A stretch of 64,000 nucleotides of DNA from Dictyostelium discoideum (Eukaryota), in the NCBI GenBank assembly GCA_000004695.1, contig CM000153.2, positions 4,320,001 through 4,384,000 of the forward strand, written 5' to 3'. The notes under the pieces are model-generated. The model worked only from the letters and a program-made list of their open reading frames with translations, made no database searches and was not told the DNA's origin. The position numbers and the translations under genes are program-made. This document shows positions 53,322 through 58,505 of this stretch, piece after piece. The first letter of the stretch is position 1; the number at the start of each line of letters is the position of its first letter.

Positions 53322-56300
53322 TTAATAATTATTATTATTATTATTATTATTATTATTATTGTTATTATTATTATTATTATTATTATTATTATTATTATTA
53401 TTATTATTATTGTTATAATTATTATTTGTTAAAGTTGGAGGTGATATATAAAGGTCATCTTTCTTTCCAATGATAATATTATGATGATAATGTTTAACTG
53501 GTGGTATTTGTGCTGGTTGTAGTGTTGTTGTTGTTGTTGATGTTGTTGTTGCACTATTATTGCTACTACTATTACAATTGTTGCCACCACCACCACTATT
53601 ACTAAGACCTGATAAAACTGGTGAAGATGGACTATTATTATTATTATTACTACTACTATTACTATTAATTTTTTGACCACCATTTTCAGAAGGTTTTAAA
53701 TCCCAAACTTCTAAAACTGTTCTTAATTCATGTTTTAAACGTAATATTCTACTAAAAACCAAACCAGTGATTGGAACAATTTGTGATAATGATTGACTGA
53801 TTTGTTTAACATCAGAAGTTGTACCAACTTCCATAAGTACATCATTATTGTAATATTTTTCCTCTAAATATTTCATATCTCTTATGTAGATTACATCTTC
53901 AATCAAATAAATTAATTTCAATACAACGCCAAGATGACTACTATTAATAACATTATTATTAATTAGATTCATAATATTTGAAGATGTCAAAGATGGTGAA
54001 GATGTTAAAGTTGGTGGATTATTTGGATGATTTGGATTATTTTGATCAATACTTGATGATAAATTAAATGTACTTGGTGATTGTAGTGGTGGTGGAGTTG
54101 TTGTTGTTGTTGTTGTTGTTATTGGAACCATTGGTATTGTTGAAGAAGCTGATAATTGTACATTTGTTGTTGTAGTTGTTGTATAAGTTGTTGGGACTAT
54201 TGGTAATGATGAAGTTAATGATGGTGAAGGTGTTTTATTATAAATTGATTTTAAATAGGTTATAATTGGTTTCAAAGAATCAGTTTCAATATATTGTTTA
54301 CTTGTACTAGTTGAACTTGTTAAATTAATATCATTTAATAATTCAGGACTTGCTTCAAATATTGATTTATGTTCTTTTAATCTATCTAAAACTAAAATTT
54401 CAGCAGCATGTAAAAATTCATCTAACGAATGATAAATCTTTAATTTCAATGGTAATATTAAATTATTTAAACGTTGTTCCAATTCTAACTTTGTATTTGG
54501 TTTTAAGACTAAATTAATGATTCTAAGGTTTTCACGTACTTTTGATAACGATTTTGGAGGTTGATCAATATAATTCTCTGGTAAAGCAAATTGGTCATAG
54601 CCAATACCACGTATATAACTATCGATTGAGTCTCTAATCAATTGTAAATACCAATTGGTCAACTCCTTCTTCTTTGAACCATCTGATATCTTTGAATTAT
54701 TTGTAATCACGGTTTCAATTGCTAAATCACATTCTGTAATTAAACATTGAATAGTATCTCTTGATGACATACTATACTTTTTAAATACACCATTATCTAA
54801 ATCTCTAATCAATGAAACAATATTAACTAACCATGGTTTAAATTTAATATATTGTTTTTTAATTTCATAAAAATAAAAATCATCACCATTATTATTATTA
54901 TTATTATTATTATTATTATTATTATTATTATTATTATTATTATTATTATTATTATTATTATTATTATTATTATTATTATTATTATTATTATTATTATTTG
55001 TTGTTGTATTATTTGAATTGATTTTAAATAATTGATTATAATCATTTATAATTAATTTATCTTGATTTTCATTACTGTTATTATTGTTATTATTATTATT
55101 ATTTATAATATTAATAATATTAAAATTAGTAAAGAATAAATTATGTGTACCTTTTAATTCTTGAATGAAAAGTTTTTTTAAATAATTTGAAAAATTTAAT
55201 GTATATTGATTTGATAATTGATTAATTGATTCTAAATATGTTGGTAATTCAGCAGAGGTTAATAGTATTGATAGTTTCTTTTTAACAGATTCTAAATCAT
55301 CTAGTGATACGTATTTACCACCTCTAGTGAATTGTAAAGCTTGAGAGATTGAGTCAACGTCATAACCATGTTCTAGTAATCTTTGTTTCACTGTATCCTT
55401 TGTAGCTTGACGTAATTCCGATGCAAATGCATCGAATGGATTTGCAATTAATCTTTCCATTCTTTTACCATCATTAATTGGTATTTGAATATTCAATGCT
55501 TTCAAAGAGACAACACGTGATAATGGTATCTTTATTTGAGTACTCTCATCAGCTTGTAAATAAATGAAGCATCCCAATCCTAGTGGGTCCGCCTCCTTTA
55601 CATATCTACCCAATATAAATGTGCCCTCATCAAATTCATGATGAAATGATTCAATTTGGTGTTGTAATTGTTGCTGTTGTTGTTGTTCTTGGTATTGTTG
55701 AATTTGTTTAGAATTAATACCACTACTTTGTAATGTGAATGGTAATAATTGTGATCTTAAAAATGGTGATGAACATGCTGATGATGATAATGATAATGAT
55801 GATAATGATGGTTGATGACTTAATCCATTACCATTACCATTACCATTACCATTATTATTACTATTTAAACTATTTACATTTTGTTGTTGTTGTTGTTGTT
55901 GTTGTTGTTGTTGTTGTTGTTGTTGTTGTTGTTGTTGTTGTTGTTGTTGTTGTTGTTGTTGTTGTTGTTGTTGAATATTATAACTATTATTATTATTACT
56001 ATTATTATTGTTTTGTAAAACCATTGGAATAATTTGACCATTTGAACCAATTGGTGTCCAACCTTTTGGTAACTTTGCGATAATTATATCACCCTCTGTT
56101 AACTTTTCATTCTCTAATTTCTTTGAGAATTCTCTAACAGTTTTAAAGAGTATATCTTTATTTTCAATTGTTGCCCATTGTTCAATATTTGCAATGAGTG
56201 ATGATCTTGAAATACGTAAATCCCATATTGATACATTATTATCTTTATTATCTTTATTTATATTATTATTGCTACTATTATTACAACTAATATTGGTATT

Positions 56301-58505
56301 ACTACCACTATTACTATCTTTATTTATATTATTGTTGTTATTACTACTATTACTATTATTAATATTATTATTATTTCCACTACTACCGCTATTATTATTA
56401 TTACTACTATTTACACTACTATTACCATTACTACTGCTACTACTATTATTATTATTATTATTATTATTAGTAGTAGTAGTTGGATTGTTATTATTTATAT
56501 TATTTATATTACTACCATCATCATTTAAATAAAAATATTTTTTAGCTCTTCTTTGTATATCTTTTGAAGGAGTCATACCAATTAAAACATTTTCAGGATC
56601 AACTTTATGAGTTGATAAAAATTTATAAAGATCCACTGCCAATCTAAAGATTGGATCACTCTCTTCATCCCATTGATTACTATATAACAATAAGAAATAT
56701 TCCATTTGAGTTTTATATAAATCAAATTGTTGTTTACTTCTAATTCTACCATAAAAAAACATTTCAAAATTTATTATCTCTGAAATATTCTTAAATTTCA
56801 ATGTATTTATATCTGTGAAATTATTATTATTTTGAGGTACCACTGATGACTCTTCTTCATTTTGATCTACAAATTGTCTTTCTGAATTACCATTATTATT
56901 ATTGTTGTTGTTGTTGTTGTTGTTGTTGTTGTTGTTGTTGTTGTTGTTGTTTGAAAATGGTGATAATCTTTCAGATAAATTTATTAAAAATGATTTAATC
57001 TTGTCAACAAATATATTCTTTTGGTTTGGTAAATTTGAAAGACCAATTATTTCCAACTCATACATACAATCAGTATATGATGGACATGTCTCTTCAATAC
57101 TATTATTACTATTATTTATATTACATTTATTGTTGTTATTGTTATTGTTATTATTATTGTTGTTATTATTATTACAATTATTTTCTTTTTCTTTTTCTTT
57201 ATCTTTGTTGAAGACTTCTCTCAAATTTGTGAAACTATTAGTTGGTGATTGATTCTTTATATAATGTGAGTGATCAACAGATTTTGAAAGTAATTTATTA
57301 TGTGGTGATAAACCACTACTATTATTATTATTTACATTATTATTTGCTGTTGTAGTGGTATTTGTAGCATTATCAATACTAATTGATGGTTGTTGTAATA
57401 CTAGTGGTGTTGGTGTTGTTGTTGAAGTTGGTGTTGTTGGTGGTGTTGTTACTATGTTTGGATGATTGGTTGTTGTTGTTGATGTTGATGTTGATGTTGA
57501 TGTTGAATTTGATAATGTTGTTGATGCAGAATATATTGGAGCACCATAACTAATATGAGAAATTGATGCAGATAATTGAATTGTTCTTTGTGGTCTATTT
57601 ATCATTGAAGTTGATGATGATAAATTTGATTCTGGAACTGGTGTTGTATCAAAATTTGAAAATTCACCTTCAAAATTACCAATACTACTACCATTACCAC
57701 TACCACTGCCACTACCAATACTACTGCTGCTGCTATTACTACTACCGCTACTAAAACTATATGAACTATTTAAATTATTCATGATTTTAAGTGTATTTGT
57801 AAAATCACCACTATTTACATTATTACTATTTCTACTCTCTTTAGATTTCTTTATTGTATGTAATATTGATGTTTTTGATGATTCACATTTGTGACTTAAA
57901 TTTCTACAATTTTTATGTGTCTATATTATATAAATATGAGTTGGTTAATAACCATACAACTATTATTTAATTCTATATATATATATATATTTATTTTATA
58001 ATTTAACTCTCTAAATTAAAAAAAAAAAAAAAAAAACACACCTTTTGATTACACTTTGAACAAGAATAACCAGATGGTTTTGCTTTTGATGATATTATAA
58101 TATTTAAACAACCATTGCATTGATGACCACTAGATTCAAAATATTCTTTATTCCAATCGTGTTTAATTATATTACAAAATGATGAAACGTGACTTGATTT
58201 ATTATTACATTCTAAATGGCATGAAAGGTGACATATTTTACAATCTTAAATATATGGAGAGAGAGATTAACAAAAAAAAAAAAAAAAAAAAAAAAAAAAT
58301 ATTTAGAAATTAATATCACACAAACAATCTGATAATAATAAAATAATAATAATAATAATAATAATAATAATAATAATAATAATAATAATAATAATAAAAT
58401 AATAAACTTACAATATGCAATCTTTCCTACATCCCAAATCAATCTGTGACAAATAAAACAAAATGGGGGTGTACCATAATGTTTTTTAATCCAGTCATGC
58501 TCCAT
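53322..58505 (-). CDS. Large low-complexity protein of ~1,630 aa (N/Q/S/T-rich) with an N-terminal C1-type (phorbol-ester/DAG-type) zinc finger. Exons on the minus strand are 58505..58412, 58244..58042 and 57920..53322.
   Basis: The 1,486-aa ORF (53322-57782) remains open upstream for 46 codons to an aatatag acceptor at 57921. Exon 2 encodes YCKICHLSCHLECNNKSSHVSSFCNIIKHDW...GHQCNGCLN...SCSKCNQK and ends with a GTGTGT donor. Exon 1 encodes MEHDWIKKHYGTPPFCFICHRLIWDVGKIAY and has a GTAAGT donor (phase 1). Together they give the H-x12-C-x2-C...C-x2-C-x4-H-x2-C pattern. The central region has non-repetitive blocks (HEFDEGTFILGRYVKEADPLGLGCFIYLQ...). Confidence 0.6.

Follow-up and report, generated by a model that had tools for sequence, protein, structure and literature searches.

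Two short 5' exons are predicted to complete a tandem C1 zinc-finger unit at the N-terminus of an Asn/Gln-rich Dictyostelium discoideum protein

The minus strand of a 64,000-nucleotide (nt) stretch of the Dictyostelium discoideum genome (assembly GCA_000004695.1, contig CM000153.2, positions 4,320,001 to 4,384,000; the whole stretch is referred to as the window, and positions are counted from its first letter) carries a long Asn/Gln-rich open reading frame (ORF) of 1,486 amino acids (aa). The question raised by this locus is whether the ORF encodes a complete protein or is the last exon of a longer gene. An initial annotation, made from the DNA letters, had proposed the latter, with 5' exons encoding a C1 zinc finger of the diacylglycerol (DAG)/phorbol-ester type. 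Our analysis points to the same gene structure: Pfam matches, sequence matches in the Protein Data Bank (PDB) and introns conserved in three other species all agree with it, and we estimate at about 0.9 the probability that the long Asn/Gln-rich frame is the last exon of a three-exon D. discoideum protein-coding gene with C1 fingers.

The coding sequence (CDS) consists of three minus-strand exons, 58505..58412, 58244..58042 and 57920..53322, joined in frame across GT..AG introns. The spliced CDS of 4,896 nt contains no internal stops and encodes 1,631 aa, in line with the ~1,630 aa previously suggested; the coordinates, the 138-nt open extension of the ORF, the 203-nt and 94-nt exons, the donors and the phases were all reproduced when the exons were joined. 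Exon 1 (58412..58505, 94 nt) begins with the ATG at 58505 and ends in phase 1 before GTAAGT; an in-frame TAA precedes this ATG by four codons. It encodes residues 1-31 and the first base of the Tyr32 codon, including His3, Cys16 and Cys19 of the first finger (C1a), and the orthologous proteins begin at the equivalent site. Intron 1 (58245..58411, 167 nt, GTAAGT...TTTAAG, 90% A+T) contains a (TAT)25 microsatellite and an oligo-T run. Exon 2 (58042..58244, 203 nt, ending in phase 0) encodes residues 32-99, which comprise the second half of C1a and the first half of the second finger (C1b), and is followed by intron 2 (57921..58041, 121 nt, GTGTGT...ATATAG, 87% A+T). Exon 3 (53322..57920, 4,599 nt including the TAA stop at 53322-53324) holds the 1,486-aa ORF, whose first ATG is at 57782 and whose frame stays open for 138 nt upstream (57920-57783), reaching the acceptor. 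His101, Cys104 and Cys111 of C1b are encoded in these 138 nt, which is independent evidence that the extension is coding. Outside the low-complexity insertions, exon 3 is colinear with the orthologues over its entire length. The G+C content is 7-14% in both introns versus 25-31% in the exons (21.8% in the window overall), and the length and A+T content of the introns are typical of Dictyostelium. Upstream of the ATG at 58505, we saw no additional in-frame coding potential in the interval 58600-58800; on the coding (minus) strand of this interval, oligo-T runs of 20-30 nt lie within 300 nt of the ATG, as expected for a Dictyostelium promoter region.

The N-terminus of the spliced product contains two C1 fingers in tandem, each with six Cys and two His residues. 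C1a (residues 3-55, coding span 58174..58499, minus strand) is split by intron 1 and reads H-x12-C-x2-C-x13-C-x2-C-x4-H-x2-C-x10-C, and C1b (residues 60-111, coding span 57885..58161, minus strand) is split by intron 2 and reads H-x13-C-x2-C-x15-C-x2-C-x4-H-x2-C-x6-C. The assignment of the Cys/His pattern to the C1 family in the initial annotation thus held, whereas its single finger turned into two, each straddling an intron. In the Pfam scan of the spliced N-terminus that had been suggested as a check, C1_1 (PF00130) scored 46.1 bits (E = 4.3e-12) over two matched stretches, exceeding its curated gathering cut-off of 26.5 bits, with weaker matches to C1_2 (18.7 bits) and PHD (E = 1.9). The ORF alone had no Pfam match, confirming that an annotation confined to it would miss the sole recognisable domain of the protein. 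The C1_1 score of C1a rose from 15.6 bits (profile positions 1-29 of 53) when exon 1 was read through into intron 1 to 34.2 bits (positions 1-46) for spliced residues 1-58, and that of C1b rose from 17.2 bits (positions 1-38) when exon 2 was read through into intron 2 to 25.4 bits (positions 1-50) for spliced residues 56-125, indicating that splicing completes both domains.

All eight zinc-ligand positions are present in both fingers and are kept in every orthologue model that covers the given finger; the inner ligand spacings are canonical in both, and three loop lengths are not. Based on the C1_1 membership, a C1 fold and the binding of two Zn2+ are predicted. Among sequences of solved structures, the closest to C1a were the C1A fingers of protein kinase C (PKC) delta (E = 5e-7) and PKC theta (E = 3.8e-6), followed by RasGRP1, Munc13 (E = 3.6e-4) and other PKC C1 fingers; all but one of the 27 PDB sequence matches at E <= 10 were C1 domains, the remaining one being an antibody chain. 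The contiguous string C-x2-C-x4-H-x2-C-x5-11-C occurs only once across the six frames of the window, in exon 2, and the first 115 residues of the protein contain 13 Cys versus 10 in the other 1,516.

Functionally uncharacterised orthologues are present in other dictyostelids: D. purpureum (DICPUDRAFT_86409), Acytostelium subglobosum (SAMD00019534_053500), Polysphondylium violaceum (CYY_006029) and Tieghemostelium lacteum (DLAC_11360). They share an identical architecture, in which the tandem C1 unit is followed by an N-terminal and then a C-terminal conserved module (N-module and C-module), at 42-58% identity; poly-N/Q/T insertions give the D. discoideum protein an additional 280-480 aa. The N-termini of the D. 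purpureum, A. subglobosum and P. violaceum proteins are colinear with the spliced product across both junctions. Inspection of the genomic loci of D. discoideum, D. purpureum, T. lacteum and A. subglobosum revealed both introns at an identical codon position and phase: intron 1 interrupts the Tyr codon of 'AY|YC' in phase 1, and intron 2 follows 'C-x2-K' in phase 0. The introns of the orthologues are unrelated in sequence and length (65/77, 87/66 and 81/89 nt). Taken together, the unique Cys/His string, the clustering of Cys residues, the splice-dependent Pfam match and the introns conserved in four species argue that the C1 pattern is not due to chance.

In UniProt, the D. purpureum, A. subglobosum and P. 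violaceum orthologues are named 'Phorbol-ester/DAG-type domain-containing protein', and their models include these exons. The gene model presented here is therefore a correct re-derivation of an essentially known feature, the orthologues already carrying the C1 annotation, and the annotation problem that it implies may not exist; we found no paper on the gene or its orthologues in the literature. An error of this kind is nevertheless real in one public model: DLAC_11360 of T. lacteum begins at an internal Met ('MAYYC...') and lacks the first three ligands of C1a, so that half of the first finger is dropped. In the corresponding genomic sequence (LODT01000051.1, L002:2890-3012), an in-frame ATG located 111 nt upstream (L002:2890) adds 37 residues, MSSDHLHLQQQHDWIKKHFSIPPYCYLCKRLICDIGK. 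The N-terminus extended in this way restores the first finger, and the C1_1 score increases from 30 bits (one matched stretch) to 58.1 bits (two). In the A+T-rich genomes of Dictyostelium, the sole recognisable domain of a large low-complexity protein can reside in tiny 5' exons, and ORF-based calls therefore lose it.

The remainder of exon 3 encodes two modules that, poly-N/Q/T tracts aside, are well conserved among dictyostelids. The N-module (55149..57071, minus strand; residues ~383-1023) is interrupted by poly-N/Q insertions and contains the motifs DPENVLIGMTPSKDIQRR, GDIIIAKLPKGW and HHEFDEGTFILGRY; profile positions ~50-430 are common to distant homologues. The C-module (53694..54770, minus strand; residues ~1150-1508) has a Thr/Pro/Ser-rich insert and contains the motifs G-x-KK-x-ELT-x-W[YW]L, GYD-x2-A[LV]P-x-NYID-x-PP and VPITGL-x-FSR-x-LR-x-KHELRTVLEVW. 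Low-complexity words dominated the homologue searches: with the full protein as query, only three orthologues and one distant match were returned, and a profile of the conserved region (A2) contributed a further two. When this A2 profile, a four-row alignment that includes the D. discoideum protein, was searched against 1.84 billion proteins, it matched 472 representatives at E <= 1e-3, of which 281 reached E <= 1e-10. A profile free of low-complexity sequence (A3) returned nothing at E <= 1e-6, though its first row is part of an orthologue, and we treated this outcome as tool behaviour. The family consensus includes the motifs G-x-KK-x2-LT-x-WWL, GYDF-x-AVP-x-NYID-x-PP and VPI[ST]GL...R-x-ENEL-x-TV, and the D. 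discoideum protein matches the family in both modules.

All family members that could be named belong to Amoebozoa, and comprise the dictyostelid orthologues (including those of P. violaceum and Synstelium) and the distant Cavostelium, Thecamoeba, Vermistella and Stygamoeba; a T. lacteum paralogue in the family has ankyrin repeats at its C-terminus. Pfam scans yielded no match on the conserved region in the ORF alone, in three full-length orthologues or in 53 distant homologues. The conserved modules belong to an uncharacterised family without a Pfam model. The accessory domains found among the 53 long homologues were ankyrin (seven), MORN (one) and RasGEF (one), and none of the 53 contained a C1 domain in the Pfam scan. 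Because of this last result, the tandem C1 unit appears to have been added at the N-terminus in the dictyostelid orthologue group specifically. Outside the C1 domain, profile searches of the sequences of solved structures returned nothing significant; the best other hits in the Pfam scans and these searches, BLOC1_2 (E = 0.022) and BUB1B (E = 0.048), were taken as chance. No solved structure was a neighbour of the C-terminal helical module. For the 791-aa conserved region of the A. subglobosum orthologue, AlphaFold2 gave a poor model, with a predicted local distance difference test (pLDDT) value of 54 and a predicted template modelling (pTM) score of 0.37. An SH3/Tudor-like beta-barrel around GDIIIAKLPKGW...EFDEGSFILGRY is possible in this low-confidence model (pLDDT 50-68). 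In the D. discoideum protein, the motifs GDIIIAKLPKGW and EFDEGTFILGRYVKEADPLGLGCFIYLQADESTQIKIPLSRVVSL (residues 707-905, within 55149-57071, minus strand) are predicted to be beta-strands and resemble such a barrel, divided by a 130-residue poly-Q/N insert.

Mutagenesis of C1 domains has identified Pro11, Gly23 and Gln27 as critical for the binding of DAG and phorbol esters, and the binding signature also includes hydrophobic residues at positions 8, 13, 20, 22 and 24. We read the two fingers residue by residue against the PKC delta C1 sequences in the PDB matches. C1a retains Tyr8, Pro11, Phe13, Leu20, Ile21, Trp22 and Val24, and has Asp23 and Ile27; C1b has Ser11 and lacks Gly23 and Gln27. 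Neither finger carries the typical DAG-binding signature. Gln27 is missing from both fingers in all five orthologues examined, with Ile, Leu or Met at this position of C1a, and position 23 of C1a is Asp in four of the five and Gly in P. violaceum only. Here, 'DAG/phorbol-ester-type' stands as the name of the Pfam family and not as a demonstrated ligand-binding property, Gln27 being missing in both fingers. Since Gln27 is lost from both and C1a carries Asp at position 23, lipid binding appears doubtful and must be regarded as unproven. Typical C1 domains bind lipids, whereas atypical ones do not have the binding features and mediate protein contacts (PMC2427238). The residues present suggest that the fingers are more likely of the atypical kind, binding proteins or general lipids, than true DAG/phorbol-ester sensors.

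In the best explanation of these data, the gene encodes a 1,631-aa cytosolic protein in which exons 1 and 2 and the first 12 codons of exon 3 specify the tandem C1 unit, and the remainder of exon 3 specifies the two conserved modules separated by poly-N/Q/T tracts. The tandem C1 unit would have been added at the N-terminus in the dictyostelid lineage and most likely has a targeting function, in which the zinc-stabilised fingers recruit the C-terminal modules to a membrane or a protein partner. We propose this role because of the behaviour of C1 domains elsewhere and because relatives bear ankyrin or MORN interaction or targeting domains in its place. The hydrophobic loop residues retained in C1a (Tyr8, Pro11, Phe13, Leu20, Ile21 and Trp22) are those that insert into membranes. 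Given how common C1 domains are, and that the orthologues already bear this label, the finding changes little; of mild interest is the membership of the remaining part of the protein in a sizeable family without a Pfam model, solved structure or known function.

Several observations tell against this picture. The splicing is deduced entirely from sequence and comparative evidence, and neither the exact 1,631-aa product nor that of the 1,486-aa ORF was found in a collection of 15 billion proteins; the public D. discoideum model may differ somewhere, or repeat lengths may be strain-specific. Taken alone, C1b scored 1.1 bits below the C1_1 cut-off, and the spacers before the last Cys (x10 and x6) and the middle spacer of C1b (x15) depart from the classical x7 and x13-14. 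A role in targeting is proposed by analogy with other C1 domains, and the closest solved relatives of C1a are typical DAG-binding fingers. The nature of the evidence for splicing, together with an intron-2 donor (GTGTGT) that is less canonical than GTAAGT, could be taken to mean that the upstream 'exons' are a separate small gene or chance open frames and that the ATG at 57782 is the start codon of the large protein. We regard this as very improbable: C1b requires three ligands encoded in exon 3 upstream of that ATG, the exon structure and a colinear protein are common to four species, the unspliced frames run into oligo-Leu/Phe nonsense with loss of the Pfam match, and the ORF by itself contains no Pfam domain. 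It is harder still to believe that the clustered Cys and His residues form a finger of the PHD, RING-like or zinc-ribbon type instead of C1. The PHD match is weak and below threshold, and matches to IBR (E = 0.0043) and zf-HIT (E = 0.026) were obtained solely with the unspliced exon-2 fragment, whereas C1_1 is by far the best match, with C1_2 in second place, and the PDB sequence matches are C1 domains apart from the antibody chain.

The remaining alternatives concern the ligand. If the fingers were typical DAG sensors, phospholipase C activity would recruit the protein, as a DAG effector, to membranes. The best solved relatives of C1a, the C1A fingers of PKC delta and theta, bind DAG and phorbol esters, C1a preserves the six loop residues named above, the P. 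violaceum orthologue has Gly at position 23 of C1a, and Dictyostelium has PKC only in a primitive C1-plus-kinase form (PMC12055004). Nevertheless, this reading appears unlikely, given the replacement of Gln27 by Ile, Leu or Met in all orthologues and of Gly23 by Asp in four of five, and given that C1b, with its middle spacer of 15 residues, lacks Pro11, Gly23 and Gln27. A more far-reaching proposal, which we consider improbable, holds that the conserved ~700-aa region that follows the fingers is an undescribed family and that its dictyostelid member, with a DAG-responsive tandem C1 unit, is a rare non-kinase DAG effector; if true, it would be one of very few such effectors in a setting where PKC is primitive only. 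We retain the reading of atypical fingers with a probable targeting role.

Three long repeats were noted at the locus: a perfect, uninterrupted (CAA)31 poly-Gln run in the CDS (55881-55973), an (AAT)33 poly-Asn run at the extreme C-terminus of the CDS (53328-53426), and the (TAT)25 microsatellite of intron 1 (58332-58405). All three are likely to be polymorphic in length between strains, and such variation could explain the absence of the exact protein from the public collection. Elsewhere in the window, the ORF at 12237-13250 (minus strand) is identical to XP_637847.1/Q54LY4, a zinc-containing alcohol dehydrogenase of D. discoideum AX4, which marks the present locus as a nuclear D. discoideum gene subject to the rules of eukaryotic splicing. 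One cluster member, from D. dimigraforme, is twice as long (679 aa) and may represent a fused or tandem model.

Comparison with known C1 systems places the D. discoideum protein apart from the familiar architectures. Munc13/Unc13 is superficially alike in having C1 on the N-terminal side of a long helical region (MUN in Munc13); no significant structural or sequence similarity was found between the helical region of the present protein and the MUN/CATCHR helical tethering domains. The tandem unit consists of two adjacent fingers with their ligands in C1 order and only four residues between them. The C1A fingers of PKC delta and theta are the closest to C1a, as judged from the E-value for delta, and share its hydrophobic loop residues, whereas the kinase, C2 and pseudosubstrate regions of PKC have no counterpart in the D. 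discoideum protein. The two fingers differ from typical ones in the absence of Gln27 from both, in the Asp that replaces Gly23 in C1a and in their non-classical spacers. In the atypical C1 domains of Vav1, Raf-1, KSR and aPKC, the zinc ligands and the fold are kept, the residues that bind DAG and phorbol esters are lost, and protein-protein or intramolecular contacts are made (PMC2427238). In contrast to these proteins, the D. discoideum protein has no DH-PH, kinase or Ras-binding domain, and its C1a is nearer to the typical fingers than to those of Raf or Vav.

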